DNA of 64,000 nucleotides from positions 13,408 to 77,407 of the forward strand of contig CAZMQX010000001.1 of NCBI GenBank assembly GCA_964568745.1, given 5' to 3'. The stretch comes from an uncultured Candidatus Saccharibacteria bacterium (lineage in GTDB: Bacteria > Patescibacteriota > Saccharimonadia > Saccharimonadales > Saccharimonadaceae). Below are positions 9,308 to 63,318 of the stretch, one piece after another. The position numbers were made by a program, and so were the translations under genes. The notes under the pieces were generated by a model. That model was not told the origin of the DNA and made no database searches. It worked only from the letters and a program-made list of their open reading frames with translations. The first letter of the stretch is position 1. The number at the start of each line of letters is the position of its first letter.

Positions 9308-10524
9308 AGAGATACTTCCTAGGGATGGCAGCAGGATATCGATGGAAAGATATCTTCCGACATACTTTTGCAGTGGGCGGTGAAAAAGATAGGGATTTGC
9401 TTTGTCAATATCTAAACAAACGCTACGGGGGCGAGACGATACTTTGTAAAAACGGGCGCTCGGCACTTGGATTGGCGTTAAAAGCGTATTTCGAGCCTGG
9501 TGACGCCGTGATTGTTAACGGTTTTACGTGCTATGCTGTATTTGAAGCGATAAAAGCGGCTGGGCTTACACCGATATTCGTGGATATATCCCAAGAAGAT
9601 TTGAACTTTGATGTAGTGGCACTCGGCAAGCTCAACACGTCTCATTCGGGGCCGCGTCGCTCGCGCCCGTCGCCACGGGGCTCGCGCGCTAAATCTCGCG
9701 CTGCCGCGCTCCGAAATGCCCCGAACGAGACATTATTGAGCTTGCCGATACGAGGCATCATCGTACAAAATTCCTTAGGGAATCCAGCAGACATCGTCGC
9801 GATCGAGAAGCTCGCAAAGAAATACGATTTAACGATCATCGAGGACATGGCGCATTGCGTTGGAGTAAAATACGCAGATGGACGCGAATGCGGCACTGTG
9901 GGCGTAGCGGCGGCTTTTTCGTTTGGGAAGGACAAGGTGATCGATACGGTCTCTGGTGGAGCTGTAGTATTCAGGGAGCCTGCTAAGCATAAGATTGAAT
10001 TACCTAATTTGAGACCTAGGCCGTCAGACCATTTACGAGCAAGATTCTATCCGCTTTTTGGAGGAATTTGCAGAAGTTTGACCGCTGTACATTTAGGTGG
10101 TCTCTTGATGCGTGGATTAGTAAAGATTCATTGGGTGGAGAAATCCGCCGACAATCGTTTAGATTTTCGACGAGTGATCTCGGGATTTGAAGCAAAACTG
10201 GCTTTGAGGCAGTTTGAAGCGCTTTCTCATAACAAGAAACAGCCAATACGGGAGTTCTGTTTGATCAACAACCGCAATGAAGTGCTAAAAAAGCTGGCCA
10301 AAGCGGGATACTATCTAGATGGGTTGTGGTACAAACAACCTGTTTCGCCGGAACGCTACTATAAAAAAGTACATTTCCCAGAAGAAAAATGCAAGACAGC
10401 GGTATATGTTGCAAAACACATTATTAATTTACCAACAAACTATGGCGAAAAGGCCACTAGAAAAGCAAAGCAGATAATCAAACCATATCTGGTGAAAGGA
10501 GGTAGTGTTGAACAGCCTAGCTAG
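9304..10524 (+). CDS. DegT/DnrJ/EryC1/StrS-family PLP aminotransferase carrying an in-frame palindromic insertion
   Basis: NGRSAL, FTC..V, IIEDMAH, FSFGKDK (PLP lysine), GGA; ~42-aa atypical insert GKLNTS...TLLSLP. Confidence 0.8.
   Translation: MKRYFLGMAAGYRWKDIFRHTFAVGGEKDRDLLCQYLNKRYGGETILCKNGRSALGLALKAYFEPGDAVIVNGFTCYAVFEAIKAAGLTPIFVDISQEDLNFDVVALGKLNTSHSGPRRSRPSPRGSRAKSRAAALRNAPNETLLSLPIRGIIVQNSLGNPADIVAIEKLAKKYDLTIIEDMAHCVGVKYADGRECGTVGVAAAFSFGKDKVIDTVSGGAVVFREPAKHKIELPNLRPRPSDHLRARFYPLFGGICRSLTAVHLGGLLMRGLVKIHWVEKSADNRLDFRRVISGFEAKLALRQFEALSHNKKQPIREFCLINNRNEVLKKLAKAGYYLDGLWYKQPVSPERYYKKVHFPEEKCKTAVYVAKHIINLPTNYGEKATRKAKQIIKPYLVKGGSVEQPS
9623..9748. repeat. Palindromic element E1 (family A), in frame in the DegT gene
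   Basis: 13-bp perfect inverted arms tcggcaagctcaa/ttgagcttgccga, inner gtctc/gagac and ttcggggc/gccccgaa; 73-bp core (9649-9721) identical to 11539-11611. Confidence 0.92.
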
Positions 10525-11512
10525 CGCGGAAGAATGGCAAAAGGTGGTCAAAAAGCACCCGGAAGCTAATTTTTTGCAATCACCTACTTACGGTAAAATG
10601 CATACGATCATCGGAGAAAAAGTCATTTTGGAGGATTTTGATGGGGGAGGTTGGGCGCTGATGATTATACATGATGCTAAACGTGGTAGATATATGGAGA
10701 TTCCGTGCGGGCCATTGCTAGACTGGGGTGACTTGAAGCAAACGAAGAAGATATTTGGCCTAATCCGTGATATTGCTAAAAAAGAGCATTGTGTATTTGT
10801 GAGAGTAAGGCCGCAACTTCCTGCCACTTCTGATAATCTTCAGCTTTTGGCCTCACTGGACCTTAAAAAAGCGCCGATGCACCTTGCGGCAGAGCATACT
10901 GTAATGATTGATCTCACCAAGACAGAAGAGGAACTACTTGCGGCGATGCGCAGACAAACACGCTACGAAGTGAGGCGAGCCGATAAGCTGGGCATTCGCG
11001 TGTCGAGAGACGATTCAAAGGATTGTTTCCGAGAATTTCATTCCATACAGGTTGAAACCGCTAAAAGACAAGGGTTTGTGCCACCAAGCCTAAATACTCT
11101 GTTTGCTGAGCGTGAGGCTTTCTTAGGTTCAGCATGGATTTACAAGGCAACGACCGACATAGATGGTGTACAAAAGCCGATGGCTTATGGGTTAATCATC
11201 GGCGATGGGCTTGAGGCCGACTATTACGAAGCGGCGTCGACAGATCTTAATCGCAAACTGCCCGGAGCGTACGCTTTATTATGGCAGGCGATGCGTGACC
11301 TCAAAAAGGCTGGCTATCAGCGTTTTAATTTGTGGGGGATCGCACCAGCCGGACAGCCAAATCACCGTTACGCCGGAGTGACTACTTTTAAGACTGGTTT
11401 CGGTGGTGAAGTTGTAGAATACGTGCCGGCGCATGACATGGTGATTTCACGGATGCGGTATCTAAAAGATTTAGTGGTAGAAAAAGCCAGGAAGAAACGG
11501 AGGCACCTATGA
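10505..11512 (+). CDS. FemAB/FemX-family peptidoglycan aminoacyltransferase
   Basis: NFLQS, GPLLDW, RVRP, MRRQTRYEVRRA, NLWG, FKTGFGG; GTG start with SD AAGGAGG. Confidence 0.88.
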   Translation: MLNSLASAEEWQKVVKKHPEANFLQSPTYGKMHTIIGEKVILEDFDGGGWALMIIHDAKRGRYMEIPCGPLLDWGDLKQTKKIFGLIRDIAKKEHCVFVRVRPQLPATSDNLQLLASLDLKKAPMHLAAEHTVMIDLTKTEEELLAAMRRQTRYEVRRADKLGIRVSRDDSKDCFREFHSIQVETAKRQGFVPPSLNTLFAEREAFLGSAWIYKATTDIDGVQKPMAYGLIIGDGLEADYYEAASTDLNRKLPGAYALLWQAMRDLKKAGYQRFNLWGIAPAGQPNHRYAGVTTFKTGFGGEVVEYVPAHDMVISRMRYLKDLVVEKARKKRRHL

Positions 11513-12645
11513 GCCAGATGAAAAATTCATTGAATCTCGGGCCGCGTCGCTCGCGCCCGTCGCCACGGGGCTCGCGCGCTAAATCTCGCGCTGCCGCGCT
11601 CCGAAATGCCCTCGATTTCAATGAATCTTTCCATCTTGAGTCTGCTTCCGATCGTGCTTCCTGGGATAGTTTTATCACTTCGCATTCAGAGGCAAATTTC
11701 TTGCAGTCGTGGGATTTTTATGAATTCCACAAGGCGCGGGGCAAGAAGGTTGTACGGCGCATCGTAATGCTTGACAATAAAATTGTCGGAGCTTATGCCG
11801 GAGTGGTAGAAACTGCTAAACGCGGGCGATATATGGCGATTGCCGGCGGGCCTATTCTTGATTGGCGCGACAAAAAACTAGTCAAGTTAATTTTTGATGA
11901 TATCCACGAGGAAGGAAAAAAGGCAGAGTGTGTGTTTGTGCGCATACGGCCACAGCTTGAGTTGTCCGACCAGTCTCTTCGTTTGATGGCAGAACTAAAA
12001 TTGAAGAAAGCACCGATGTATTTGTCGGTGGAATATGCTGGTGTACTAGACCTCAAAAAACCTGAAGAAGAGATCTTGGCCGGAGCATCGCAGGGTTTTC
12101 GTCGCAAGCTCAGAAAAGCCCTGAAAAATGACATAGAGATCACGGCAGATACGTCTGATGTTGCAATAAATGAATTCTGTCGTCTCGAAAAGTTACACGC
12201 TGAACGTCAAAAATATGTGGCTTTTTCCTCAAGTTTCCTGACGAAACAATTTGAGGCCTTTCGTGATGGGAACGAGATATTGATCTACACGGCACGAAAG
12301 GACGGTGAGGTCCTGGCGCAGAATTTCATGATTTTTTATGGACCAGAAGCGAGCTATCATTATGGCGTGTCATCGGAGCTTGGCACAAAATACTCTGCGG
12401 CTCCACTTCTACACATAAAAGCGATGGAGGAAGCCAGAAAACGCGGTTGCATACGCTATAATCTCTGGGGGATCGTGGAGCCAGAAGAGAAATCTCATCG
12501 TTTTTATGGAGTATCCGAGTTTAAACGCTCATTTGGTTGCGAAGAACTGCGCTATACGCCAGCTCACGATATGATCCTAAAACCAACTGCTTATCAACTA
12601 ACCAAAATAGTTGAAACTGCGCGCAAGAAAAAACGCCATGTATAA
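11509..12645 (+). CDS. Second FemAB/FemX-family aminoacyltransferase, N-terminal palindromic insertion
   Basis: NFLQSW, GGPILDW, YNLWG, FKRSFG; ATGA overlap with the upstream paralogue. Confidence 0.88.
   Translation: MSQMKNSLNLGPRRSRPSPRGSRAKSRAAALRNALDFNESFHLESASDRASWDSFITSHSEANFLQSWDFYEFHKARGKKVVRRIVMLDNKIVGAYAGVVETAKRGRYMAIAGGPILDWRDKKLVKLIFDDIHEEGKKAECVFVRIRPQLELSDQSLRLMAELKLKKAPMYLSVEYAGVLDLKKPEEEILAGASQGFRRKLRKALKNDIEITADTSDVAINEFCRLEKLHAERQKYVAFSSSFLTKQFEAFRDGNEILIYTARKDGEVLAQNFMIFYGPEASYHYGVSSELGTKYSAAPLLHIKAMEEARKRGCIRYNLWGIVEPEEKSHRFYGVSEFKRSFGCEELRYTPAHDMILKPTAYQLTKIVETARKKKRHV
11525..11626. repeat. Palindromic element E2 (family A), in frame near the FemAB-2 N-terminus
   Basis: 10-bp perfect arms attcattgaa/ttcaatgaat; core identical to E1. 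Confidence 0.92.
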
Positions 12646-12685
12646 AGATTTGTGATATAATAAGCATAAGTAATAAAGGAAAGAT

Positions 12686-13306: not shown

Positions 13307-13361
13307 ATTTTGACTGCTCGGACCTGTTCGCTTTCTATCTTTTTGTGATATAATTTAGGTT

Positions 13362-14225: not shown

Positions 14226-14251
14226 TATAATTATAAATAGGAGGTAAAAAA

Positions 14252-18630: not shown

Positions 18631-19047
18631 ATGAAAAAGAAGAGAGTGTCTAGTAGTGTGACGGTCAATCGTAAAGCGCGGTTTGATTACGTGCTTGGCG
18701 ATGAGCTGACGGTAGGTATGGCACTTGCAGGGCCGGAAGTGCGTCTGATCCGCGATCATCATGTCCAGCTGAAAGGCTCTTATGTAACTATCCGAAATGG
18801 AGAATTATGGTTATATGGACTCACGCTCGGTGCAGATACTGCGAGAAACATCAAACTACTTGCCACAAAAAAACAAATTGCTACTCTTGAGCGAGAAAAA
18901 AAGGACGGATCGACCATTGTGCCAGTGCGTTTAAATGGCGGGCAGAGATACATTAAGCTCGTGATTGCGATAGGTAAGGGTAAGAAGAAATATGATAAGC
19001 GCGAAGCCATCAAAAAACGCGACATTGAAAGAGGTAGATATGCTTAA
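18631..19047 (+). CDS. smpB: SsrA-binding protein (compact, 138 aa)
   Basis: NRKARFDY, G.EV, KLL, GKGKKKYDKRE. Confidence 0.9.
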   Translation: MKKKRVSSSVTVNRKARFDYVLGDELTVGMALAGPEVRLIRDHHVQLKGSYVTIRNGELWLYGLTLGADTARNIKLLATKKQIATLEREKKDGSTIVPVRLNGGQRYIKLVIAIGKGKKKYDKREAIKKRDIERGRYA

Positions 19048-19855
19048 AATTTTTTCCTGGAATGTTAATGGTTTGCGCGCGGTAATTCGTAAAGGGGCCT
19101 TACAAAAATTCATCCAGGAATATCAGCCGGATATTTTGTGCCTGCAAGAGATTAAGGCGAAACCAGAGCAAGTGGAGTATGATTTTCCGGGATACAAGGT
19201 ATTTTGGAATCCAGCAGAGCGAGCTGGCTATAGCGGGACGGCTACATTAGTTAGGGAAGAATTATTATCATTGCTTTCCTCAGCTGACTTGTTCGCCAAA
19301 AATCAAGATAATTATGCTTCGGAAAGCAACGATAATAATTCTTTCAACATAGCTGTTGACGAAGGCAGGATTCTTACGCTTGACTTTGAAAAGTTTTATT
19401 TAGTAAATGTTTATGTGCCGAATTCGAAGCCGGATCTAGCGAGATTGAAATTGCGTGAGGCAGAGTGGGATCCGGAGCTGCTGCGGTACTTAAAAGAGCT
19501 AAAAAAGACCAAGCCGGTGGTGGTGTGTGGGGATTTTAATGCAGCGCATAATGAGATCGATATTGCGAGACCGAAGACCAATCATCATTCGGCGGGGTTT
19601 ACCGATGAAGAGAGAAAGGGAATCACAAATTACATTAAGGCTGGATTAGTCGATACCTTTCGCTATTTGCATCCAGGATCGGTCCATTATACCTGGTGGA
19701 GTCACTGGGGCCAAGCGCGAGCAAACAATATCGGCTGGCGGATCGATTATTTCTTTGTGTCTGAATCTCTTAAAAGTAAGCTAGTCTCAGCGGAAATTTA
19801 CGAAAACGTGATGGGATCGGATCACTGCCCGATTTCGATCGAGCTGGAGATCTAA
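19040..19855 (+). CDS. xth: Exodeoxyribonuclease III / AP endonuclease with an in-frame hairpin insertion
   Basis: SWNVNGLRA, LQEIK, GYSGTA, EGR, YVPNS, CGDFN, WRIDYF, SDHCP; start at ATG 19040. Confidence 0.93.
   Translation: MLKIFSWNVNGLRAVIRKGALQKFIQEYQPDILCLQEIKAKPEQVEYDFPGYKVFWNPAERAGYSGTATLVREELLSLLSSADLFAKNQDNYASESNDNNSFNIAVDEGRILTLDFEKFYLVNVYVPNSKPDLARLKLREAEWDPELLRYLKELKKTKPVVVCGDFNAAHNEIDIARPKTNHHSAGFTDEERKGITNYIKAGLVDTFRYLHPGSVHYTWWSHWGQARANNIGWRIDYFFVSESLKSKLVSAEIYENVMGSDHCPISIELEI
19255..19345. repeat. Palindromic element E3 (family B), in frame in xth
   Basis: 13-bp arm aagaattattatc/gataataattctt plus 9-bp ttgctttcc/ggaaagcaa separated by one mismatch; shares TCAGCTG(G)ACTTG and TTATGCTTC(A/G)GAAA with the priA element. 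Confidence 0.85.
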
Positions 19856-22500: not shown

Positions 22501-22550
22501 ATCTTTATTTTACCACGTAGTGTGGTATAATCGAAACATTAACAATTATA

Positions 22551-22641
22551 ATATCGAGAAGGAGTGAGGGAACGGCCCTTTGAGCTCCTGCCAACCTACC
22601 GTTTTGGCAAGGTGGTAAATCCGACCAGAAAGGAAAGATAT
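22551..22641 (+). promoter_or_regulatory. SAM-I riboswitch (translational type)
   Basis: ATCGAGA-AGGAG-TGAGGGAACGGCCC-TTTGA-GCTCC-T-GCCAACC...AGGTGGTAAATCC...AAGAT matches the SAM-I core; P1 atatc/gatat overlaps the metK ATG; extended -10 TGGTATAAT at 22523-31. Confidence 0.88.
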
Positions 22642-23605
22642 GTTCTATAGAACTGCGGAGAGCGTTTCTCCGAAACACCCAGACAAATTGTGTGACCGAA
22701 TCTCTGACGCGATTTTGGACGCTTATTTTGAAAAAGATCCAAATGCTCGCGTAGCAGCTGAGACTTGTGGTGGACACGGCGTAGTCTTTGTGACTGGTGA
22801 AATCACGTCGACGGCTGACGATATCGATATCCCAGCGATAGTCCACAGAATCGCAGGTGACGATATTGAAGTTCATACCAAGATAGTAAAACAATCGCCC
22901 GAAATCGCTCAAGGCGTAGATACTGGTGGAGCCGGTGACCAGGGAATCATGATCGGTTTTGCCTGTGATGAAACACCAGAAATGCTACCACGCGAAGTGG
23001 TGCTAGCGAGACGACTCAACCAATACATCTATGACAAACATGCTTATGATGGCAAGACACAAATTACTTTGGCACCAGACGGCTCGGTGGATTCTATCGT
23101 GGCTAGTTTTCAGAATGTACCGCACGACGAACTAGAAAAAATCGTACGAGAATTCATTAAGGAACACAAACTTGAGGGTAAATTAGAACTCCATATTAAT
23201 CCGGCAGGAGATTGGAACCAAGGCGGTTTTGACGCTGATACCGGCTTGACTGGTCGTAAACTGATTGTAGATAATTATGGGCCACGCGTGGCGATCGGTG
23301 GTGGCTGTTATTCTGGCAAAGATCCATCAAAGGTTGACCGTTCGGCTGCCTATATGGCACGTCGAATTGCGGTAGATTACCTAAGGAAGCGTAAAGCTCA
23401 TGAGGTGTTGGTGCGACTAGCCTATGCGATCGGCTACGCCGAGCCGCTCGAAAAGACCGTGATCATTGATGGCAAGCCTGAGGAGATCGAGGGCTATGAT
23501 CTCACACCGAATGGCATCATCAAATACCTAGACCTCAAGCGGCCGATTTATGAGGAGACTGCTTGCTATGGACATTATGGCGAAGGATTCGACTGGGACC
23601 GCTAG
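22640..23605 (+). CDS. metK: S-adenosylmethionine synthetase (compact)
   Basis: ESVSPKHPDK.CD.ISD, GAGDQG, GLTGRK.IVD.YG, GGG..SGKD..KVDRS. Confidence 0.96.
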   Translation: MFYRTAESVSPKHPDKLCDRISDAILDAYFEKDPNARVAAETCGGHGVVFVTGEITSTADDIDIPAIVHRIAGDDIEVHTKIVKQSPEIAQGVDTGGAGDQGIMIGFACDETPEMLPREVVLARRLNQYIYDKHAYDGKTQITLAPDGSVDSIVASFQNVPHDELEKIVREFIKEHKLEGKLELHINPAGDWNQGGFDADTGLTGRKLIVDNYGPRVAIGGGCYSGKDPSKVDRSAAYMARRIAVDYLRKRKAHEVLVRLAYAIGYAEPLEKTVIIDGKPEEIEGYDLTPNGIIKYLDLKRPIYEETACYGHYGEGFDWDR

Positions 23606-31495: not shown

Positions 31496-31608
31496 GATTC
31501 CATTATACACAACCGTTTTGTTTTTTGCAATGTTTTTTTGTTTTTTCGGCAAAAAATGTGGAAAAAAGTTATGTTTTTTAGTATAATTAGATAAAAGTGG
31601 AGTTAACA

Positions 31609-32874
31609 ATGCAAAAAGATCACGTCAAAAAAACTATTACCCAAGAAGAGCTTGCACAGGCCTTTACTGGTGAGGTGGCTATGCCAGCCGAGAAGACCAA
31701 GAAAAAATCCAAGATCTCCGAGCGTACGTTGGCTATTTTTCTCATCGTCGGTGTGGTTCTGCTGACAGCAGGATGCGCGATGCTAGCATTTGGCATTTTG
31801 AATCTTGGCGAATCCGCGAGCGATGTCGAATACCCCGATCTCAAAGCCGAAAAGGACGCGCAAAAATATTACAGCCCTTTGACTGGCCAATCCATAGAGA
31901 CGGAGTCTGACGTTACTGCGCCGATCTATTGCATACAGACTCCAAACGGCACCGATGGAGCAAGGCCACAAGCAGGACTAAATCAAGCTGGTGTGATATT
32001 TGAGGCAATTGCCGAAGCCGGCATCACCCGTTTTGCGGCAATCTATCAAAATCCGACTTCATCAGTGATTGGCCCGATTCGTTCACTCCGTATTTATTAT
32101 CTTGAATGGGATACTCCGTTTGACTGCACCATTGTGCATGCGGGTGGTTCGGGAGATGCGCTAGCGGCGGTATCAGACGGTGGGTACAAGGACCTGACTG
32201 AAGATTATACCTACATGTACCGCGGGACTAGCGGTAGTAGATTATGGAATAATCTATTCACGACTGCCAGCAATCTAAAACGTTTTAGCTCTGATCGGGG
32301 GTATGATAAGTCTGAAGCCAAGGGCTTTGCACGAATGACACCAGATGAATCGCAGAAGGCACGAGTAGACGAGCAGGTGAGCGAGAAACTAGTCATCACT
32401 AAGCCCGCCAAAGGGAATACATCGGAGCTAAAACCTACAGTAACTACGATCGGTCTAAGATTTGGCGGGTTGCCTAATTATAATGTAGACTATGCTTATG
32501 ACGCTAATTCTAACACCTACCATAGAAGTTATCAGAGTGGGGTAGCGCACGAAGTCTATAATTGTCCGCCCGATGATCTCGGCGAGAAAAACCCTGAGAG
32601 TGTCTGCTCACTAGTGCAAATGGCGCCTACGGTAGTGGTAGCAATGGTTGTTTCAGAACACCGTGCTTCGGATAACTATCACGAAGATATCACCGCTATC
32701 GGTTCGGGTGATGCCTACATCTTTCAAAATGGTGGAGTGAAGCAGGGCACTTGGAAGAAGGCTTCCCGCGAGGCGCAAATTGAGTTTGTTAACACGAACG
32801 GGGAATCAATAAAATTAGCGCCTGGGCAGACAATTATTTCCGCGGTGCCAACCTATGGTAGTGTTGACTTTTAG
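31609..32874 (+). CDS. DUF3048-domain membrane-anchored protein
   Basis: One TM, SPLTG, ARPQAGLNQA..IFE..AE.GITRF, GPIRS.R, HAGGS. Confidence 0.85.
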   Translation: MQKDHVKKTITQEELAQAFTGEVAMPAEKTKKKSKISERTLAIFLIVGVVLLTAGCAMLAFGILNLGESASDVEYPDLKAEKDAQKYYSPLTGQSIETESDVTAPIYCIQTPNGTDGARPQAGLNQAGVIFEAIAEAGITRFAAIYQNPTSSVIGPIRSLRIYYLEWDTPFDCTIVHAGGSGDALAAVSDGGYKDLTEDYTYMYRGTSGSRLWNNLFTTASNLKRFSSDRGYDKSEAKGFARMTPDESQKARVDEQVSEKLVITKPAKGNTSELKPTVTTIGLRFGGLPNYNVDYAYDANSNTYHRSYQSGVAHEVYNCPPDDLGEKNPESVCSLVQMAPTVVVAMVVSEHRASDNYHEDITAIGSGDAYIFQNGGVKQGTWKKASREAQIEFVNTNGESIKLAPGQTIISAVPTYGSVDF

Positions 32875-36597: not shown

Positions 36598-37989
36598 ATG
36601 AAGAGATTGCCTATCGTAGCGTTGATTGGTCAGACGAATGCTGGAAAATCGAGCATCCTGAATCGTTTGGCGCGCAAAAATATCGCCATTGTAGCACGCG
36701 AGGAGGGAACTACGCGCGATAATGTTGTGGCAACGATAGATGATAGTTTTATTTTGATAGATACTGCTGGTCTGAAAGACCCGTCTGATGATTTTGAGGC
36801 ATCGATCCAAGAACAGATCAGTGACGCGATCGATGCGGCCGATGTAATATTGGTCACATTGGATTCGTCGAAATATTTTGATCATCGTGACGCAAAAATT
36901 GCCAAGGATGCGCTCCGTTCTAAAAAGCCGGTTTTGCTCGTTTTGAATAAGTGCGACTTAGGCGAGTCATTGCCGATAGAAGAATTTCGCGCCCTCGGTA
37001 TTGCGCCAGAGAACACTTTTTATATTTCGGCGACGACTGGACAGGGTATTGACAGCCTGAAAAGGCAATTGGAATATGGTTTTTCTCGGGACGGCGTCGC
37101 TCCATCCCGTCGTCACGGGCGGAGCGCGCCTTCATCCTCGGTCGTAACCTCCGGACACCCTCAAAAAACATATTCCCAATTGCCTTTTTGTCAAACTCCC
37201 CTGAAAATCGCTCTGATCGGGCGGCCGAATGTCGGGAAGTCGTCGCTTTTTAATGCTCTGGGGAAGAAACAGCAGGCGATCGTGAGTTCAAAACAGGGAA
37301 CCACGCGCGATGTAAATCGTGTATCCGTGAAGTACAAGGGACGAGAGCTTGAGATTTTAGACACGGCGGGCCTGAGAAAGCCAGGGAAGCGCGAAGTGGG
37401 GATCGAAAAGTTCTCAGCGATTCGTACTTTAGCGGCGATTGAGGAGGCGGATATTTGTTGTCTTCTCGTCGATGCTACCGAGCCGCACGCTAAGCTCGAC
37501 CAAACTCTCGCTGGACAGATCGTTGAAGCCGGTAAAGGTATAATCATGGTGGTGACCAAAGTAGACTTACTGAAGTCGTCAGCTGAGGATTCGAATACAC
37601 TTCTTGATGACCTTGAGCGAGATTTTGACTTTTTGCCGTTTGCGCCGGTGGTATTGACTAGCTCTGAGACAGGGGAGAATGTCACAAGATTATTTGAACT
37701 AGCACTCCAGATAGACGAATCAAGACACCAAGAGGTCAAAACTTCAGAACTCAATAAGATCCTCGGCGATGCGATGGTGAGCCACCCGCCGGCTGGCCTC
37801 AAAAATACAAGACCAAAACCAAAATACATCGTGCAAACTGATACTTGCCCACCGTGGTTTGTGGTACATGGTCACGACCTAGGGTTGCTACATTGGTCGT
37901 GGAAGCGATTTTTGGAGCGCAAAATCCGTGAAAAATACCCGTTTATTGGTACTCCGATCATGTTTTCTTTTCGAAACGACCAAAAATAA
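36598..37989 (+). CDS. der: Ribosome biogenesis GTPase Der (EngA) with an in-frame palindromic insertion in the GD1-GD2 linker
   Basis: Two G-domains (GQTNAGKS, DTAG, NKCD; GRPNVGKS, DTAG, TKVD) and KH-like C-terminus. Confidence 0.96.
   Translation: MKRLPIVALIGQTNAGKSSILNRLARKNIAIVAREEGTTRDNVVATIDDSFILIDTAGLKDPSDDFEASIQEQISDAIDAADVILVTLDSSKYFDHRDAKIAKDALRSKKPVLLVLNKCDLGESLPIEEFRALGIAPENTFYISATTGQGIDSLKRQLEYGFSRDGVAPSRRHGRSAPSSSVVTSGHPQKTYSQLPFCQTPLKIALIGRPNVGKSSLFNALGKKQQAIVSSKQGTTRDVNRVSVKYKGRELEILDTAGLRKPGKREVGIEKFSAIRTLAAIEEADICCLLVDATEPHAKLDQTLAGQIVEAGKGIIMVVTKVDLLKSSAEDSNTLLDDLERDFDFLPFAPVVLTSSETGENVTRLFELALQIDESRHQEVKTSELNKILGDAMVSHPPAGLKNTRPKPKYIVQTDTCPPWFVVHGHDLGLLHWSWKRFLERKIREKYPFIGTPIMFSFRNDQK
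37060..37188. repeat. Palindromic element E4 (diverged family A), in frame in der
   Basis: 13-bp perfect arms aaaaggcaattgg/ccaattgcctttt; 79-nt core 37084-37162 shares blocks tctcggg, gcgtcgctc, cccgtcg, cacggg, gcgcgc, ctccg, ccctc with 11535-11613. Confidence 0.88.
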
Positions 37990-45532: not shown

Positions 45533-48352
45533 ATGGAAGCGATTATACATTTTATTCTTATGCCAATATTTTGGATCCCGGTGGTGGGTGTGCTCGCTTT
45601 TTTAACCTATCGAAATTACAAAAAACTCAATCGTATCAAAGTTTTGAACGTCGATTCGGTCTTGCTCATGCTTGAAATCCCGCGCACCAACGACAAAAAA
45701 GAGTTGGCTCAAGAACAATTATTTGCTAGTTTGCACGGAATTCTAAGAGATAAGCAAGAACTTAGAAACTCTGGTGGAGTACAAGAACATTTGTCATTTG
45801 AAATCGTTTCAACCGCCGGGCAAATCCGCTTTTATGTGTGGGTGCCAAAAGTATTGCAGAGTTTTGTAGAAGGGCAGATTTACTCTCAATATCCTACAGT
45901 GCAGATCTACAAGATGAATGAAGATTATGTAGATGGGCGCAAGAACTACCCTGTAAATTATATGACCGAACTTGGGTTAATCGAAGACGAGGCTCTACCA
46001 ATCAAAACTTTTGAAAGTTTTGAAGTCGACCCTCTGGCCGGTATCACGGGGACTTTGGCGAAACTCAGTCCCGATCGCTCTGAGGAGCTTTGGATCCAGA
46101 TTTTGACGAGACCGATTGCAGATGATTGGCACAAGACTACCACCGATAAATGGATCCGGCGGGTAAAGACTGGTACAAGATCGCTTTTTTCGGGCAGTGG
46201 GATCGACTGGACTTGGATCATCGAAGCATTTGCGGCGTTATTTAGACCACCTGCTGGCGGTACTAACTCAGATACAACGATCGAATTATCTGAACGCGAC
46301 AAGACACGGATCGCTAAAGCCGAAGAAAAGGCCACCAAACTCGGCTATGAAGTTAAAATCCGCCTGGCATATCTTGGCCAGAATGACACCGATGCTAAGT
46401 TGAACATGCAGGCTTTAGTTGGCACGTTTAAGCAATTCAATTCAACCAATCTGAATGGTTTTAAACAAATCGGTGGGACCTTTAATGCCGCAGATCTTGA
46501 TGCCTACAAGATGCGCCAATTCTCGGATCGTGGTTTTATACTGAATATCTCTGAGCTTGCTTCGGTGTATCATTTGCCTCATACTTCCGTCGAAACACCC
46601 AACATCGTCTGGGCGACTTCAAAGACCGCTGAACCGCCGGCTAAACTGCCGGTGTTGACTGGTGATACTAGCAACGATGAAAATGTCTCGGCTTTTGGCT
46701 TAACAAACTTCCGTGGCATCAATCATCAGTTTGGGCTACTGCGTCGCGATCGTTCAAGACATGTGTATATTATCGGTCAGACTGGGGCAGGGAAGAGCGG
46801 CATGCTAGAGCTTTTGGCACTTTCTGACGTATTTTATAATCAAGGCTATTGTATCATTGACCCGCATGGTGATTTTGCGATTGATAACTTAAAATTTATT
46901 CCGGAATCGAGGATCCGTGATGTGGTATATTTCAACCCGGCAGATACGGCATTTCCGGTCGCCTTTAATCCGCTTGAGGTGTCGGACCCAGCCAAAAAAC
47001 CGAATATCTGTTCTGAAGTAATCGGCGTCCTCAAGCGAATGTTTGGCGACTCATGGGGCCCGAGGCTTGAGCATATTTTGCGCTATACTTTGCTGGCTCT
47101 ACTTGATCGTCCTTCCACAACGCTACTCGATATCTCGCGTTTGCTCACGGACAAAGATTTTCGCAAAGAGACGCTCAAATATTGCAAAGATGTCACCGTC
47201 TTGCAATTCTGGAAACATGAATTTGGTCAATGGAACGAAAAACAGGTTAATGAATCGATCGCGCCGGTGCTAAACAAAGTTGGGGCCTTTACCGCTAACC
47301 CAATTATTCGCAACATCATCGGTCAGCCAAAGTCCTCTTTTGATATTCGTAAAATCATGGACGAGGGTAAGATCTTGGTCGTAAACCTATCTAAAGGTCT
47401 GATTGGTGAAGACAATGCTGGCATTCTTGGTGCATTCTTGGTGACGAAGGTCCAACTTGCGGCAATGTCTCGCTCCGATATACCACGAGTAGAGGATCGC
47501 CGGCCATTTTACTTATATGTAGACGAATTTCAGAACTTTGCGACTGATTCGTTTGCTGTGATCCTTTCTGAGGCACGAAAATACGGCCTAAATCTTACAG
47601 TGGCCAACCAATACGTTGCCCAGATGACTGATTCAGTGCGAGATGCAGTGTTTGGCAATGTTGGCACAACGATTTCGTTCAGAGTGTCTGCCGACGATGC
47701 GCCGATTCTAGTCAAGCAATTTGAGCCGACCTTTGAAGAATCTGATCTGATCCAGCTCAATAACCGTCATTTTGTAATCTCGATGATTATCGGTGGTGAA
47801 AAAGTCCCAGCTTTTTCAGCAACTACGCTTTCTATTCCAGAATCGCCGTCAGATAATTTTGAAGCCATCGTGGCGCATTCACGCGAATATTATGGTAGAC
47901 CGAGGCTCGAAGTGGAGCGTGAGATCCGTGAGACCATCGAACAAGCGGACAAATACAAGAAGAACTTAGCCGATTCTGGTCGACAAGAGCCAAAAATTAT
48001 CCTGCGGTCCGGGCTTAGCCCTAACACCGCCGAAGGTAAGGAGCGACTCGGTCTAAAGGATCTTGCGCGAATGGTTGAAGAAAACGGAGAGGGGAAGGTC
48101 CAATTTGTAAAACCAAAAGGGAAACGTGCCAATAAAAACCGCCAGCAGACCAAAAAAGGGAACCGTGCGTCGTCAAACAGCGGTAATTCCCCTGTTCGTC
48201 CAGAGGTGGAGTATCAAGAAAAGTCGACCGTCCCTATTAAACCATCCCACGATGCCGCCTCTGTTAATTCTCTATCTACCCCTGTTAAAGAGCCAGAGAA
48301 TTACGCCCCGAAAGATAACTCTGTAGATGGATTTCTATCTATAAAACACTAA
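45533..48352 (+). CDS. TrwB/VirD4-VirB4-like ATPase with N-terminal TM
   Basis: GQTGAGKS Walker A, IDPHGD, FNPL, LYVDEFQNF Walker B, SEARKY, ANQY, GNVGT. Confidence 0.85.
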   Translation: MEAIIHFILMPIFWIPVVGVLAFLTYRNYKKLNRIKVLNVDSVLLMLEIPRTNDKKELAQEQLFASLHGILRDKQELRNSGGVQEHLSFEIVSTAGQIRFYVWVPKVLQSFVEGQIYSQYPTVQIYKMNEDYVDGRKNYPVNYMTELGLIEDEALPIKTFESFEVDPLAGITGTLAKLSPDRSEELWIQILTRPIADDWHKTTTDKWIRRVKTGTRSLFSGSGIDWTWIIEAFAALFRPPAGGTNSDTTIELSERDKTRIAKAEEKATKLGYEVKIRLAYLGQNDTDAKLNMQALVGTFKQFNSTNLNGFKQIGGTFNAADLDAYKMRQFSDRGFILNISELASVYHLPHTSVETPNIVWATSKTAEPPAKLPVLTGDTSNDENVSAFGLTNFRGINHQFGLLRRDRSRHVYIIGQTGAGKSGMLELLALSDVFYNQGYCIIDPHGDFAIDNLKFIPESRIRDVVYFNPADTAFPVAFNPLEVSDPAKKPNICSEVIGVLKRMFGDSWGPRLEHILRYTLLALLDRPSTTLLDISRLLTDKDFRKETLKYCKDVTVLQFWKHEFGQWNEKQVNESIAPVLNKVGAFTANPIIRNIIGQPKSSFDIRKIMDEGKILVVNLSKGLIGEDNAGILGAFLVTKVQLAAMSRSDIPRVEDRRPFYLYVDEFQNFATDSFAVILSEARKYGLNLTVANQYVAQMTDSVRDAVFGNVGTTISFRVSADDAPILVKQFEPTFEESDLIQLNNRHFVISMIIGGEKVPAFSATTLSIPESPSDNFEAIVAHSREYYGRPRLEVEREIRETIEQADKYKKNLADSGRQEPKIILRSGLSPNTAEGKERLGLKDLARMVEENGEGKVQFVKPKGKRANKNRQQTKKGNRASSNSGNSPVRPEVEYQEKSTVPIKPSHDAASVNSLSTPVKEPENYAPKDNSVDGFLSIKH

Positions 48353-52931: not shown

Positions 52932-52938
52932 AAATATA

Positions 52939-54810
52939 TTATAATACTCCTGGTTTGATTTTCAAGTAGTCGATGAGATAATTTGAGACATCGTCAAATA
53001 GACCGCTTGCGATCTGGCCATCAAGATATTGACCCTCTCCTAGCATTTTTACCATGATGACGTATGACGGCATTTCACCATTTGGAGCTACGAAGCCGAT
53101 ATAAGTACCGACAGTCTCACTCATGGTGTCGTCGTAGGCGCCGTCTTTGATTACCTGAGCGGTGCCAGATTTGCCACCAATGGTATAGCCAGGGCGATCG
53201 ATGCCGGCTTTGACTTTGTAGTCGCGGTTGTTAATAAACATGTCACGCATTGCGGCAGAAGTCTCATCTGATAAAATTTTATCTTCGATCTTATTGCTCG
53301 ACGGGTCTTGCCGCGCCTTCTCCTCCCCCATTTTGCTATCGCTCAATGGGGGACCCCCTCCAGGCGCGTCACCCGTCGATGTAACACTTTTTGAGACAAC
53401 TTCTCCGTTTTCGTAATACCCTTTAATAATCGTCGGAGTGCGCCAATAGCCACCATTTACGACCGCCGAGTAAGCCGTGGCGGTCTGAATCATGGTGATG
53501 CCGAGGTTTTGACCAAATGTCATGTTGGCGTACACCGAATCACGCCCCCAACCTTCGTTTGGATCTGGAATAAAGCCTTCGGCTTCAATTAGCTCGATAC
53601 CCGTAGCTTGGCCTAAACGGAATTTATTGTAATAATAATCATAGAGCTTTTCCCTGCCCTGCTGGGTGATTTGATTCGAGTTGCCGCCGAGTAGTTTTAG
53701 AGCATAAATCGAGCCAGTATTCAGCGACCAATAGAGAGCGGTGCGCATATTGATGGTGCCATACAAACTAGAGCGTTGCTCAGCATTCTTGATCTCCCAG
53801 TCATCTACCACTTCGTAGCCTTGGTTAAAATACGTAGTATCTGGGCTCATGACGCCTTCATTAATTGCGGCCGAAAAGGCAAAACTTTTGCAGACGGAAG
53901 CTGGCTCGTATGGGACTTCGGTGACTTGATTGAGATAAGCTGAAGCATCGGTGACGTCACCATAGTTTGCTGGATTGTAATTTGGTAGATTGGCCATAGT
54001 CAATACTTCTCCAGTGTTTGGGTTCATGACTAATACTGATGCATGAGTGGCGGCGGTAGAATTAATGTGATTCATCGCAATTTCTTCGACGCCCTGCTCG
54101 AGTCCGCGGTCAATAGAGAGAACGAGATCTTTGCCGTCTTCGGCGGGGATCTTGACGTTGTCGCTGCCAATGCTCAGTGCAACTTTGTTGACATCGGCGG
54201 TAGATTTAATGGTGCCGTCCTTGCCAGCAAGTATGCTGTTTAGTGAACCCTCTATGCCATATTGGCCAAGGCCGTCGGCGTTCACAAAACCTAGCACAGT
54301 AGAAGCAAGCGTCCCTTCTGGATAAACTCGTTCGTTGGATTTTTTGAACCAGACGTTATCTAATTTTGCGTCGCTTAGCTTTTCAATGATGTCACGCGGG
54401 ACATTTTTGGCGACAATGGAATAGCGGAGTCCTTCTGTATTATACACTTCATCTAAATCTACGACGACATAATCTTTGGCGTAATTCTCGAGAGCTTGCT
54501 TGATGGTGTCTTTGTCGGTAACGGCAGGGTCAATAATAATCTGATATTTCGTCTGGTTGAGTACGATGGCAACTGGTTCGTTTTGATCCATCATGTATAT
54601 TTCCCCTCGCCTAGCCGTGATTGTCTCTAGAATGGTATGTTCTTCATCGGCCCTGGCGACCCATTGATCATGCTCAACAATCTGAATGAAAAAGAGTCGC
54701 ACCGTAATGATGGTAAGCGCGACTAACACGACGCCCCGTAATACCTTGAGGCGAGAACGTGGCGAGGCGGACGAGTTTTCGTCCTTATGATAATGATTAT
54801 TCCGTGGCAT
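52939..54810 (-). CDS. ftsI: Class B penicillin-binding protein with an in-frame palindromic insertion
   Basis: RGEI, R.YP, GQYGIE, EPASVCK (SxxK), SLN (SxN), GKSGTAQ; ~28-aa atypical insert TGDAPGGGPP...DPSS. Confidence 0.9.
   Translation of the reverse strand: MPRNNHYHKDENSSASPRSRLKVLRGVVLVALTIITVRLFFIQIVEHDQWVARADEEHTILETITARRGEIYMMDQNEPVAIVLNQTKYQIIIDPAVTDKDTIKQALENYAKDYVVVDLDEVYNTEGLRYSIVAKNVPRDIIEKLSDAKLDNVWFKKSNERVYPEGTLASTVLGFVNADGLGQYGIEGSLNSILAGKDGTIKSTADVNKVALSIGSDNVKIPAEDGKDLVLSIDRGLEQGVEEIAMNHINSTAATHASVLVMNPNTGEVLTMANLPNYNPANYGDVTDASAYLNQVTEVPYEPASVCKSFAFSAAINEGVMSPDTTYFNQGYEVVDDWEIKNAEQRSSLYGTINMRTALYWSLNTGSIYALKLLGGNSNQITQQGREKLYDYYYNKFRLGQATGIELIEAEGFIPDPNEGWGRDSVYANMTFGQNLGITMIQTATAYSAVVNGGYWRTPTIIKGYYENGEVVSKSVTSTGDAPGGGPPLSDSKMGEEKARQDPSSNKIEDKILSDETSAAMRDMFINNRDYKVKAGIDRPGYTIGGKSGTAQVIKDGAYDDTMSETVGTYIGFVAPNGEMPSYVIMVKMLGEGQYLDGQIASGLFDDVSNYLIDYLKIKPGVL
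53298..53379. repeat. Palindromic element E5, in frame in ftsI
   Basis: Three nested perfect stems: tcgacgggt/acccgtcga (9 bp), cgcgcct/aggcgcg (7 bp), tcccccatt/aatggggga (9 bp). Confidence 0.88.
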
Positions 54811-58659: not shown

Positions 58660-58670
58660 CGTTTTTGGGA

Positions 58671-59207: not shown

Positions 59208-60823
59208 AAGAATATTATATCACATATCCGAGCTTCGAGGGATTTGACGCCGTTAAAATTGTTTTCGGTAAATCTGACTAAAGGCTCGATGCGATCAAAG
59301 TCGGGGTCGATTTGGAGCCATTTTTCAGGAGCAAAGAAAGCGAGGCATTTTAGTATTTTGCCGTGATGATCACGAAGATCGAGGCGGAGATGATTGCGAT
59401 CGGCACCCATGCGAGTGATGTTTGCAATCTCTACATTCTTCAAGCGAAAGATCGGTTCTTCGTTCCCTGGACCGTAAGGTTCGAGTTTTTTAAGCTCATC
59501 CAAGAGATTGAGGTTTAACTCAGAAAAATCGGTGATATCGAGATCAGCATGGCACAAAAAGTATTTTTCTTGATCTTTAAGATGGAGGCTGCGGTAGTAT
59601 TCATTAATTTTTTCGCGGAATGCGTAGAGATTTTTGCCCTCTAGCCTAACGCCGGCGGCAGCAGCGTGACCACCACCGCTAATTATAGTATCTTTAGCAA
59701 AATTCAGAGCATCGGCAAGGTTAAAATCACCGAAGCTCCGGCCAGAACCTTTGTATATGCCATTGCCCAGCTCGGTCAGAACAAAGGCAGGCTTTTGGTG
59801 TGCTTCGACCAATCGCCCTGCAACGATACCAAGAATCCCTTCGTGCCAATGGCCAATCGCGATGATGACTGGATCATCGCTGAGGCCTTGCTTTTCAATG
59901 TCACTGATGGCGGAAATCTGCTCGGTTTTACGTTTTTTATTTAATTGTTCGAGCTTTTCGGCAAGAGAGGCGGCGATGGGTGCTGAATCGGCACGGAGTA
60001 GATCTAGCGACAAATCGGCGGTCTCAAGACGGCCGGCGGCGTTAAGCCGTGGACCGATCTGGAAACCGATAGATTCTGAGTTTAGATTTTTGAGGCCGGC
60101 CCTGCGCATCAGCTCGATGAGGCCGGGGCGGCGAGTTTTTTCGAGAACTTTGATGCCATAGAATCCGAGGCGACGGTTCTCCCCTGTCAAAGTCATACTA
60201 TCGCAAATCGTACCGAGCAAAACAAGGTCAAGAAGCCATTTTTCTTGGCCGTTTTTGATTAGCCCTTCACTTACAAGAGCTTCGGCGAGCTTAAAAGCGA
60301 CGCCAACACCGGCAAGATTCATCAGTGCATCGGTCGGGGCATCTTTGCGGTGAGGATTAATCACGGCGATAGCTTCAGGCATCTCGTCGGCAGTTTCATG
60401 GTGGTCGGTAATAATTGTGTCGATATGTTCGTGGTTTAGTTCGTTTACGATGTCGTGATTGCGAGAACCACAGTCTACAGTAATGACAAGTGTGGCTTTG
60501 TTAGTTTTGGCACGCGTAATGAGACGTGAGCTCATGCCATAACCATCGGCAAAACGATCAGGAAGCATGATTTTGATATCTTTTGGATCTAAACCGGCAA
60601 GGACAAGAGCTTGCTCCATCACGGTACTGGCGGTAACACCATCGACATCATAGTCACCATAAATGAGGATTTTTTCGTGAGATTTTATGGCTGTTTTGAT
60701 ACGATCAATAGCCTTCGTCATGTCTTTTAGCAAAAATGGGTCGATGCGATCTTCGTATTTGGGGCTTACAAAATCTTGGTCCAAACCACGGTTTTTGATG
60801 AGTTGTATAAAAATGTTGCTCAA
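59204..60823 (-). CDS. recJ: ssDNA-specific exonuclease RecJ
   Basis: IYGDYDVDG, RFADGYG, ITVDCG, ITDHH (DHH), GPRLNAAGRL, SGRS, GGHAAAAG. Confidence 0.96.
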   Translation of the reverse strand: MSNIFIQLIKNRGLDQDFVSPKYEDRIDPFLLKDMTKAIDRIKTAIKSHEKILIYGDYDVDGVTASTVMEQALVLAGLDPKDIKIMLPDRFADGYGMSSRLITRAKTNKATLVITVDCGSRNHDIVNELNHEHIDTIITDHHETADEMPEAIAVINPHRKDAPTDALMNLAGVGVAFKLAEALVSEGLIKNGQEKWLLDLVLLGTICDSMTLTGENRRLGFYGIKVLEKTRRPGLIELMRRAGLKNLNSESIGFQIGPRLNAAGRLETADLSLDLLRADSAPIAASLAEKLEQLNKKRKTEQISAISDIEKQGLSDDPVIIAIGHWHEGILGIVAGRLVEAHQKPAFVLTELGNGIYKGSGRSFGDFNLADALNFAKDTIISGGGHAAAAGVRLEGKNLYAFREKINEYYRSLHLKDQEKYFLCHADLDITDFSELNLNLLDELKKLEPYGPGNEEPIFRLKNVEIANITRMGADRNHLRLDLRDHHGKILKCLAFFAPEKWLQIDPDFDRIEPLVRFTENNFNGVKSLEARICDIIFL

Positions 60824-60835
60824 TCTATACCCCTG

Positions 60836-61126
60836 TTAGCCAATAGTTTTACTGGGTTTGCTGCCTTTTTGCGATTTGATGACAATGGACTGAAGTTCTT
60901 TTAGAATCGGGAAAGATTTGTTGGTCTGATAGATCTTGTTGTTGCCTTTTTTGGTGACGATGAGGAAACCGCCTTTCGCCATGCGTTCGAGCTCGCGCTG
61001 GATATTGCCTGGGTCTTCTTTGATGAGTTTAGCTAAACCTCTGACGTGAGTCTTAAAATCTGGGTACTTGGCAAAGACAACCAATATTTTGCGACGCACA
61101 CGTGACGTAACAAATATTTCTAACAT
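60836..61126 (-). CDS. Winged-helix (ArsR-like) DNA-binding protein
   Basis: S.VRRKIL..F, VRGLAKLI.ED.GNIQREL, GN.K.Y..N. Confidence 0.75.
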   Translation of the reverse strand: MLEIFVTSRVRRKILVVFAKYPDFKTHVRGLAKLIKEDPGNIQRELERMAKGGFLIVTKKGNNKIYQTNKSFPILKELQSIVIKSQKGSKPSKTIG

Positions 61127-61239
61127 ATTACCTCGCTTAATTCCTTTTATTATAGCACGATTTCGGTAATAATTACAACATTATTACATGGAGATTGACA
61201 GCAATTTATTCGCGATTCACTTCGTGCTATAATTGTAGT

Positions 61240-63318
61240 ATGTTTTATGAGGTGATACCGGAGGGGAAAGTGGAGGAGCTGACGTATTCGAGCGATGATT
61301 CCCTTTTGCCGGGGCAGGTGGTGTTGGTACCGGTTGGACGGCGAGTGGTACCAGGGATGGTGATTAAAAAAGTTGCGCAACCGGATTTTGCCACGAAAAA
61401 AATTTTGCAAGTTTTGTATTCAAAGCCGCTGCCGCAACATCTTCTAAAAACAATTGGCTTTATTCATGATTATTACATGGTATCATCGGGTTCAGCAGTG
61501 TCATTAGTACTGCCCAGAGGAGTACAGAAGAAACGCCGAAAAACCGAACAGATGTTCGGTACTATGCAGGATGTGGCTGTGTCTGTTTTTTCTTCAGCTG
61601 GACTTGAAAATTCAGAAACGTCATACGCAGGACGGCCGGGAGAACCGCCCGCCTCGCGGGCGAACCTCTCGGCGTCGTCTGGAATATACGTTCCTGAATT
61701 TTCAAATCATTTTATGCTTCAGAAAAAACAGATTCAGCCATATATCCCACTTAATACCTATCAAAAAAATGCCCTAGAAGGCCTTTTAAGGGCGCCAGGA
61801 GCCACGAAACTACTGCATGGCGTTACTGGTAGTGGTAAAACTAATATATACCTCAAAATGGCTTTAAATGCCCTTAGACAGCAAAAATCAACTATTCTTT
61901 TAGTGCCGGAAATTGCTTTGACGAGTCAGCTTGTTCGGGTTTTCCAGGATTATTTTGGGCCACGAGTGGTAGTGATGCACTCTAAACAAACAGAGGCAGA
62001 GCGGCATTTGATTTTTGAATCGATTCTGGCATCCAGAGAACCGCTAGTGGTGATTGGGCCGAGGTCGGCGCTGTTTGCTCCTCTATCTAATTTGGGGTTA
62101 ATTATCATCGACGAAGAACACGAAAACGCCTATTACCAAGAAAATTCGCCAAGATATTCTACAATCAGAGTAGCGAGTTTTATGGCAGATAAGTTAGGCT
62201 GCCCTCTGATATTGGGCTCGGCTACTCCAGACATTTCAGATTATTATTTGGCTCTAAAACGCGGTTCGTTGGTGCAACTACTCAAAAAGGCGAAAAATGC
62301 CGCTATAAAACCAGATATTGAAATCATTGACTTCAAAAACAGGGAGAATTTTAGCAAAAATAAATATTTTTCTAATCCCCTGTTAAAATCCATACAATCA
62401 AATCTAGAACAGGGGCGGCAGACGCTAATTTTTCACAACCGCAGAGGCTCTGCACCACTCACAATTTGTGAAAATTGTGGAGAGGAGATTCTGTGCCCAA
62501 ATTGTTTTTTGCCACTAAACTTGCATGCTGATCAATACGAGTTACATTGTCATACGTGTGGTTTTACAGAGAAGGTGCCAGCGGGATGCCCAAAGTGCGG
62601 AACGCCTGGATTAGTCCATAAAGGTTTTGGGACAAAACTACTAGAATCAGAGTTACATAAACTCTTCCCAAAGGCGGAAATTCGGAGATTCGATGCAGAT
62701 AACAAAAAAGACGAGAGTTTAGACGCTGTTTATTCAGAAGTAAAAAATGGCGAAGTGGATATAATAATCGGTACTCAAACGGTGGCAAAAGGACTAGATT
62801 TACCAAAATTGGCTACGGTAGGAGTAGTACAGGCAGATGCGGGGCTTTCGCTACCTGATTATATGGCGGAGGAACGAGTTTTTCAGTTGCTCACCCAGGT
62901 AATTGGAAGAGTAGGTCGTGGTCATCTAAAAGAAGCGAAGGTTTTCATCCAAACTTTTCGGCCGGAGCATCCAGTTTTGCAGTTTGCGGCAAGTGAGGAC
63001 TATTTGGGATTTTATGATTATCTAATACAGAGGCGACGTAAAGCCGGTTTTCCGCCGTTTCGATTTGTAATGAAACTTGAAATCACTATGAAAACAGAGG
63101 CAATAGTGCTGAAAAAGGTGCGAGAGCTAGTGTCGCGATTGTCGCAAGATGCTAGACTAATCGTTTCTCCACCGCAACCAGGATTTCATGAAAGAACTGC
63201 CAAAGGTTACACCTGGCAAATCATCGTGCGAAGTAAATCACGAAAAGCATTGATAGAAATATGCGAGAAACTAGACAAAAACTTCCGAGTGACTTTAGAC
63301 CCACCAGGGTTACTATAA
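61240..63318 (+). CDS. priA: Primosomal protein N' with a ~60-aa in-frame palindromic insertion
   Basis: G..V.VP.G.R, LHGVTGSGKT, IIDEEH, GSATP, NRRG, CxxC x4 zinc module, KGLD, Q..GR.GR; start at ATG 61240. Confidence 0.96.
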   Translation: MFYEVIPEGKVEELTYSSDDSLLPGQVVLVPVGRRVVPGMVIKKVAQPDFATKKILQVLYSKPLPQHLLKTIGFIHDYYMVSSGSAVSLVLPRGVQKKRRKTEQMFGTMQDVAVSVFSSAGLENSETSYAGRPGEPPASRANLSASSGIYVPEFSNHFMLQKKQIQPYIPLNTYQKNALEGLLRAPGATKLLHGVTGSGKTNIYLKMALNALRQQKSTILLVPEIALTSQLVRVFQDYFGPRVVVMHSKQTEAERHLIFESILASREPLVVIGPRSALFAPLSNLGLIIIDEEHENAYYQENSPRYSTIRVASFMADKLGCPLILGSATPDISDYYLALKRGSLVQLLKKAKNAAIKPDIEIIDFKNRENFSKNKYFSNPLLKSIQSNLEQGRQTLIFHNRRGSAPLTICENCGEEILCPNCFLPLNLHADQYELHCHTCGFTEKVPAGCPKCGTPGLVHKGFGTKLLESELHKLFPKAEIRRFDADNKKDESLDAVYSEVKNGEVDIIIGTQTVAKGLDLPKLATVGVVQADAGLSLPDYMAEERVFQLLTQVIGRVGRGHLKEAKVFIQTFRPEHPVLQFAASEDYLGFYDYLIQRRRKAGFPPFRFVMKLEITMKTEAIVLKKVRELVSRLSQDARLIVSPPQPGFHERTAKGYTWQIIVRSKSRKALIEICEKLDKNFRVTLDPPGLL
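61569..61747. repeat. Palindromic element E6 (family B with a nested GC-rich hairpin), in frame in priA
   Basis: tggctg-NN-tctgttttttct/agaaaaaacaga-NN-cagcca (18 of 20 bp), ttgaaaattcag/ctgaattttcaa (12 bp), aacgt/acgtt, apical cgcccgc-ctc-gcgggcg. Confidence 0.9.

Follow-up and report, generated by a model that had tools for sequence, protein, structure and literature searches.

The Rickettsia palindromic elements (RPEs) are palindromes that lie in frame within Rickettsia genes (Ogata et al. 2000, 2002, as summarised in PMC10969869). As far as that summary describes them, RPEs are repeats of ~100-150 bp found in a single genus of obligate associates with reduced genomes; they occupy many unrelated housekeeping genes, are read in several frames in a manner compatible with the fold of the host protein, and have no known transposase. 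The same may be said of the repeats reported here from the genome of an uncultured Candidatus Saccharibacteria bacterium (GCA_964568745.1, hereafter G000), which came to light as hairpins in six genes (degT, femAB, xth, der, ftsI and priA) of a 64,000-nucleotide stretch of DNA, hereafter the window (G000:C1:13408-77407). Very probably, these repeats are mobile elements of the RPE kind: palindromes that are small, GC-rich and non-autonomous, inserted in genes and kept where they are in frame. [quoted passage not shown] They further differ from RPEs in that the GC content of their cores far exceeds that of the genome, in that cores 96-100% identical between species point to current horizontal spread, and in that every copy of the largest family, family A, is closed by inverted arms specific to its locus. 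To our knowledge, such arms have not been described for RPEs. A full-text literature search for Saccharibacteria, Patescibacteria and Nanosyncoccus returned no equivalent system in Saccharibacteria or CPR, in agreement with an earlier note on this DNA, made from the sequence alone, whose author knew of none.

Locus-specific inverted repeats that lie in coding genes, with both arms translated (as would be the case here) and dynamic gain and loss, also occur in the mitochondria of Nematomorpha, for which template switching has been proposed as the means of formation and maintenance (PMC6649704). The nematomorph palindromes share no mobile core, and their perfect arms of up to 284 bp encode conserved residues (PMC6649704), whereas the arms described here measure 12-35 nt, are imperfect, surround a GC-rich repeat that is conserved, and lengthen the protein. 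[quoted passage not shown] Our repeats differ from MITEs and REPs in their overwhelmingly intragenic, in-frame location, in that no direct target-site duplication was recognised, and in that no cognate insertion sequence (IS) or RAYT/Y1 gene was found. Finally, the mitochondrial GC clusters and the 'byp' elements of yeasts are, in the outline given by PMC6649704, GC-rich palindromic mobile clusters that have invaded the genes of an AT-richer compact genome.

Three palindrome families and their empty sites

The G000 assembly comprises 643 kb in 28 contigs (GC ~44.5%, completeness 93.75%) and was compared with the genomes of its genus of Nanosyncoccus-like Saccharibacteria, of which the collection searched holds 369 (designated below by G numbers). 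When folded as RNA and set against 200 dinucleotide shuffles each, the stem-loops of the window surpassed their shuffles at all six sites (z -3.7 to -11.2; 0/200 shuffles as good), and each was found inside a single uninterrupted open reading frame (ORF) with the expected Pfam family [Table 1], as the earlier note had proposed. The hairpins of xth, priA and der were the longest inverted repeats of the window retrieved by an inverted-repeat finder, and the Pfam matches of the DegT, xth and penicillin-binding protein (PBP) genes were stretched by approximately the length of the hairpin. Genome-wide, G000 has 60 inverted repeats whose arms reach 14 nt or more, versus 6-9 in triplet-shuffled genomes.

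Table 1. Palindromic elements within genes of the window (window coordinates; fold z relative to dinucleotide shuffles).
Element	Host gene	Position	Strand	Host ORF	Parts	Fold z
Family A	DegT/DnrJ/EryC1 aminotransferase gene	9623-9748	+	9304-10524	core ~9643-9725; locus-specific arms ~9623-9648 and ~9722-9748	-5.2
Family A	FemAB-family gene, extreme N-terminus	11520-11631	+	11509-12645	core ~11533-11615	-3.7
Orphan AT-rich hairpin	xth	19257-19343	+	18992-19855	28-nt arms; 31-nt loop; no GC-rich core	-8.0
Family A, diverged	der (EngA), GD1-GD2 linker	37060-37188	+	36598-37989	core ~37083-37164; 25-nt arms	-6.9
Family B	ftsI/PBP, transpeptidase domain	53298-53379	-	52939-54810		-6.7
Family C, nested	priA, linker before helicase core	61569-61747	+	61195-63318	outer arms 61571-61598/61716-61743; inner arms 61601-61621/61688-61708; GC-rich centre between	-11.2 (whole); -7.6 (inner)

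Where the earlier note had seen one family of palindromes, copy counts by blastn, iterated nhmmer and a covariance model resolved the six hairpins into three repeat families (A in degT, femAB and der; B in ftsI; C in priA) and one orphan, that of xth. G000 carries ~20 copies of family A (12 canonical and 8 diverged), 14 of family B and 4-5 of family C. The GC-rich core of family A spans ~73-83 nt, has conserved and inverted ends of the TTCGGGG/TCTCGGG ... CCCCGAA/CCCTCGA type, and contains an inner helix in which 9 of the 18 predicted pairs show double compensatory changes. The DegT copy scored 103 bits with the covariance model R1, and its core is identical to that of the FemAB copy over 73/73 nt. 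Family B is bounded by the conserved termini ACATCGACGGGTG ... GGACCCGTCGAG and, being devoid of locus-specific arms, resembles a classical small palindromic repeat; family C carries ~10 nt of locus-specific arm outside its conserved shell. The priA element has a copy 94% identical to it at G000:C10:11710-11862 and another, 81% identical, at G010:C2.

Alignment to same-genus orthologues revealed empty sites for degT, femAB, der, ftsI, priA, tsaD and three other genes. At the DegT site, 26-35 amino acids (aa) present in G000 were missing from six orthologues. In the FemAB protein the distance from the start codon to a conserved W-D motif was ~49 aa compared to ~13 aa in orthologues, the ~36 extra residues following directly upon Met-Ser-Gln. 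The der product was longer by 32 aa (96 nt) than those of G010, G004 and G011, the ftsI product by 21-28 aa than those of G010, G004 and G012, and the priA product by 48 aa than those of G010 and G004; the same priA site is occupied by family A in G012 and by a family B-like element in G011. Outside the window, tsaD displayed a clean 40-aa insert in an otherwise conserved stretch, and a methyltransferase-like gene encoded 31 aa more than its orthologues. The earlier note's view that these peptide segments are foreign to their protein families was thus borne out for DegT, FemAB, der, ftsI and priA. It did not extend to xth, whose loop varies in length among relatives and is only ~10 aa longer in G000, and which is not clearly an insertion. 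The xth hairpin occurs once in the genome and has in common with the family C shell only motifs of 12-14 nt (E 0.01-0.17); it is possibly a remnant with ties to family C, either of the arms alone or of the shell.

Probable translation through the elements

All 20 family A copies of G000 lie within ORFs of 256-998 aa and leave the host frame open, as the earlier note had supposed of the palindromes in the window. In a foreign set of 40 copies drawn from 20 other genomes, 35 were located in ORFs of at least 150 aa. The byp elements, as PMC6649704 presents them, are passed over by the ribosome and are not obliged to preserve the frame; here the frame is kept, and ordinary translation is thus the likely outcome. 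Excision of the elements in the manner of introns, or their bypassing by ribosomes as in T4 gene 60 and the 'byp' elements of Magnusiomyces, would yield proteins devoid of the extra peptides. Long arms bring the host junctions together and would suit either excision or a ribosome hop, and bypassed GC-rich palindromic insertions are known from a yeast mitochondrion, according to work cited in PMC6649704. Yet a single open frame runs through the element into the downstream host sequence in 20/20 copies of G000 and 35/40 foreign copies, when one third would be expected to keep the same frame by chance, before stops are counted. Moreover, a perfect inverted copy of the left arm of the DegT element would create an in-frame TGA, and the right arm departs from such a copy by a 3-to-4-nt difference exactly where this TGA would arise. 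Nor were there matching take-off and landing codons, the arms being inverted rather than direct repeats. Since splicing or bypassing would free both frame and stop codons from constraint, and both are constrained, the elements do not appear to be removed, and we regard excision and bypassing alike as very improbable. Family A elements are, on this reading of their frames, most probably translated as part of their host proteins.

The same DNA is nonetheless read in more than one way. Tallied over 47 family A copies, five of the six frames were in use: sense-0 in 24, sense-1 in 4, sense-2 in 2, antisense-0 in 14 and antisense-1 in 3. The FemAB copy is read in the same frame as the DegT copy and the der copy in another. 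What is conserved in family A is therefore the DNA or its structure, and not the peptide, which in the sense-0 frame is strongly basic.

Elements of this kind would insert into protein-coding genes and survive only where they are in frame, free of stops and located in a tolerant surface loop or linker. Persisting only at such tolerated sites, they would be transcribed and translated as low-complexity, probably disordered loops; the essential proteins affected would include DegT, FemAB, Der, PBP/FtsI, PriA, TsaD, TruB, RarA and others. An AlphaFold (AF2) model of the DegT protein had an overall predicted local distance difference test score (pLDDT) of 84 and a predicted template modelling score (pTM) of 0.87; pLDDT fell to 57-62 over residues 111-140, with flanks at 86-95, which matches the expectation for a tolerated surface excursion.

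The DegT loop (window 9600-9760) is a hot spot of insertion in general: approximately half of 120 homologues carry an insert of 20-45 aa there, of at least six unrelated types. The GD1-GD2 linker of der has also been extended by other means, a ~19-aa unit (EASKSAF.PAASPLRAHEA) being tandemly duplicated in G012 (L022, G012:C37) at the position that a family A element occupies in G000; this duplication is unrelated to the element and folds into a long hairpin.

Distribution, turnover and the search for a mobilising enzyme

The distribution of family A was determined with a covariance model of the core in 61 genomes of the genus and in 139 genomes representing 111 other genera of the same order. 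It was present in 56 of the 61 genus genomes, with up to ~30 copies each at non-orthologous sites, and undetectable in the remaining five; none of the 139 genomes from other genera yielded a copy. As far as sampled, family A is thus restricted to a single genus of Saccharibacteria. An identity of 96% or more was reached by 56 pairs of cores; 44 of these pairs joined different species and only one was orthologous. Among them, the cores of G067 and G000, as well as those of G036 and G016, were 100% identical. Altogether, 73-nt cores 96-100% identical were found at unrelated sites of species whose housekeeping genes are ~65-78% identical, indicating that the core is the unit that moved recently, both within and between species. 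Together with the empty sites and the open frames, this agrees with the non-autonomous mobility that the earlier note had suggested.

Turnover is apparent among the alleles of the DegT site. Allele P0031 differs from the filled allele P0004 by a deletion of 96 nt flanked by CTCG microhomologies, and allele P0016 has kept the arms while the core is absent. In three pairs of filled and empty alleles (P0013/P0101, P0073/P0112 and P0044/P0115) the proteins are 93-94% identical and the loop DNA too diverged for the junctions to be defined. Near-identical (97%) DegT proteins were also seen to differ by the presence, partial deletion or arms-only state of the insert.

This turnover bears on the proposal that the segments are selected features of the host, be it functional linkers rich in Arg, Ser and Pro or hairpins in mRNA or DNA that regulate expression or replication. 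Some insertions are indeed common to different species with their arms conserved (L101/L120 and four other pairs), the sense-0 and antisense-0 frames dominate among the 47 copies, and the basic character of the sense-0 peptide would suit a functional linker. However, the same DNA is read in both orientations and in five frames, and the same element resides in host proteins of unrelated function; its presence varies among close relatives, it has been deleted without loss of the gene, and five genomes of the genus do without any detectable copy. Selection for a host function is, accordingly, an improbable explanation of the repeats as a whole, and mobile DNA tolerated within genes remains the account that we prefer.

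The enzyme that would move such elements was sought among several candidates. The earlier note had pointed to a Y1/RAYT-type HUH nuclease or a reverse transcriptase (RT) encoded elsewhere in the genome, and neither lead was sustained. Y1/HUH transposases (PF01797) gave no match at E <= 0.01 in G000, the same search finding them in 6/14 reference genomes used as control. Two RT genes are present in G000 (C3:1100-2257, L058, and C28:919-2244, L059), with weak, below-cut-off matches to group II, retron and DRT models; they may be RTs of the diversity-generating retroelement (DGR) type or defence RTs. One of them adjoins a helix-turn-helix (HTH) protein, and the 2.3-kb contig C28 terminates in GC-rich inverted repeats. 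The RTs are not co-distributed with the repeats: an RT match was lacking in several near-complete genomes rich in elements (G010, G011, G056, G066 and G067, with 16-20 copies of family A), and an RT is present in G043 and G044, where family A has no copy. Outside the window, at G000:C1:92682-95416 (L053:83-2817), two perfect 87-nt GC-rich inverted repeats 2.6 kb apart enclose a DUF3800 protein and a 526-aa ORF that matches neither Pfam nor NCBIfam. This ORF was found in only 4/61 genus genomes and does not follow the distribution of the elements. With so narrow a distribution, the unit has the look of an uncommon cassette, mobile or accessory.

A cognate autonomous IS with the same ends was not found, in a search that did not cover other transposase families exhaustively. 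The clean junctions of tsaD and of a recent copy at G000:C2:38467 gave no recognisable direct duplication of the target, and the flanks of the elements are inverted rather than direct repeats. Mobilisation may take place in trans, with host replication or repair functions, or a gene that has escaped recognition, as possible providers of the mobilising function.

Locus-specific arms and wider implications

Each family A copy is closed by AT-rich inverted arms of 12-35 nt that differ at every locus, ~20 of them in G000. Arms were likewise present on 40/40 foreign copies, with a median score of 8.5 versus a null median of 0 and a null maximum of 5.5. Where two copies had cores 95% or more identical, their arms had a mean similarity of 10.2, equal to background; in orthologous insertions the arms were kept. 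At the recent copy C2:38467, the left arm corresponds to host-conserved L-L-L-A-D-I-I codons and the right arm to their reverse complement, the blastn alignment to G010 continuing through the left arm. At truB it is the downstream arm that resembles host sequence, and the copies did not bear out a rule that would always place the host-derived arm 5' of the core. Over 53 copies, the purine content of the coding strand was 0.532 in the gene-upstream arm, a value like that of coding sequence, versus 0.469 in the other arm (p = 0.007). Searches for a source of the arms elsewhere in the genome retrieved only chance matches of 10-13 nt, and nothing beyond shuffled expectation was found within 400 nt.

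These observations suggest, tentatively, that the arms originate in DNA synthesis of the fold-back kind (by snap-back or template switch), for which the core hairpin would serve as the nucleus; we consider this their most likely source. The mobile unit of family A would be the core of ~73-83 nt with its conserved inverted ends, which spreads between sites and species. Upon insertion or soon thereafter, its stable hairpin would prompt fold-back or template-switch synthesis that copies the adjoining flank in inverted orientation, and selection would then trim stops and frameshifts from the newly made arms. The hairpin could outlive the core, which may be lost or replaced by another family at the same site, and the whole hairpin might occasionally be mobilised.

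The opposite order of events, in which the arms are pre-existing coding palindromes whose tips are entered and left by mobile cores, the two having separate histories, must be weighed against this scheme. It would accommodate the arms-only allele of the P0016 type, which shares its DegT site and its arms with filled alleles, and the strong, coreless hairpin of xth. It would also fit the priA site, where the outer arm motif GATG(T)GGCT / AGCCAT is common to G000 (family C) and G012 (family A) and where the empty allele of G010 has a short ATGG...CCAT repeat, as well as the fact that several families strike the same loops. Strong unoccupied coding hairpins are rare in G000, however, and the other inverted repeats of the window (46958-47050, 7777-7853, 2668-2758, 6026-6196 and 32282-32434) folded no better than their shuffles (z -1.1 to -1.8). 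The empty der alleles of three species display no palindrome, and the der sites of G000 and G001 carry the same family within different arms. At C2:38467, one arm being conserved host coding sequence, the palindrome appears to have been made from the host flank. As the entry of cores into ready-made hairpins also leaves the origin of the hairpins themselves unexplained, we think it unlikely.

Several findings nevertheless weigh against the mobile-element account or against fold-back synthesis as the source of the arms. Of the 40 foreign family A copies, five lie outside long ORFs, and no mobilising enzyme was identified among the candidates searched. Both arms of the tsaD element are absent from four orthologues and are without a source within 400 nt, in the genome or in the 369 genomes of the genus; the arm junction is unique among these genomes at up to 3 mismatches, and had 0 exact matches in metagenome and genome collections. 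The der hairpin is ~80% identical, arms included, to one that G010 carries in another gene, and its arms are thus common to a non-orthologous copy. When one or the other arm was deleted and the remainder scored against orthologues over equalised windows, the differences were small and mixed, and the polarity of the host-like arm followed GC skew in 11/18 cases, which is not significant. The interpretation of the arms as a target duplication is therefore a qualified one, since it fits some copies and not all. In its most far-reaching form, fold-back synthesis would make of the core a self-sufficient mobile hairpin that spreads horizontally from one Saccharibacteria species to another, possibly via natural competence, without a dedicated transposase, and whose integration leaves an inverted target duplication in place of a direct one, continually seeding coding palindromes specific to their loci and, in essential proteins, new loops of peptide; this we put forward as a speculative possibility, somewhat doubtful as it stands.

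Other structured sequences were noted in the course of the analysis. At the gathering threshold, Rfam matched none of the elements in the window and recognised only two tRNAs and one S-adenosylmethionine (SAM) riboswitch, a SAM-I riboswitch (RF00162, 61.9 bits) at 22548-22644, directly upstream of an ORF starting at 22640. The window repeat at 32282-32434 consists of a 14-bp outer stem around 125 nt inside ORF 31597-32874 (whole-fold z -1.4), and may reflect chance or an old remnant. Elsewhere in G000, nested AT-rich palindromes of ~150-190 nt (GC ~0.3) are located at C6:17870-18039, C24:5311-5493, C26:4824-4974, C11:5736-5919 and C15:12029-12216; no long ORF spans them, and they may represent a further, intergenic family of palindromic repeats.

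Protein-coding palindromic selfish DNA has so far been treated as a peculiarity of Rickettsia. The repeats described here constitute an independent, apparently active system in ultra-small episymbiotic Saccharibacteria, and suggest that selfish repeats are repeatedly driven into genes by extreme reduction of the genome and a high density of coding sequence. They provide a mechanism for the many lineage-specific insertions in CPR proteins and affect how CPR proteomes are annotated and aligned and their structures predicted, the inserts of the DegT loop being a case in point, and the identity of cores between species marks an exchange of DNA that is still under way in the genus. Should the arms indeed be fold-back duplications of the target, they would represent a previously undescribed signature of integration, and a natural system in which to study the formation and tolerance of palindromes in bacteria.

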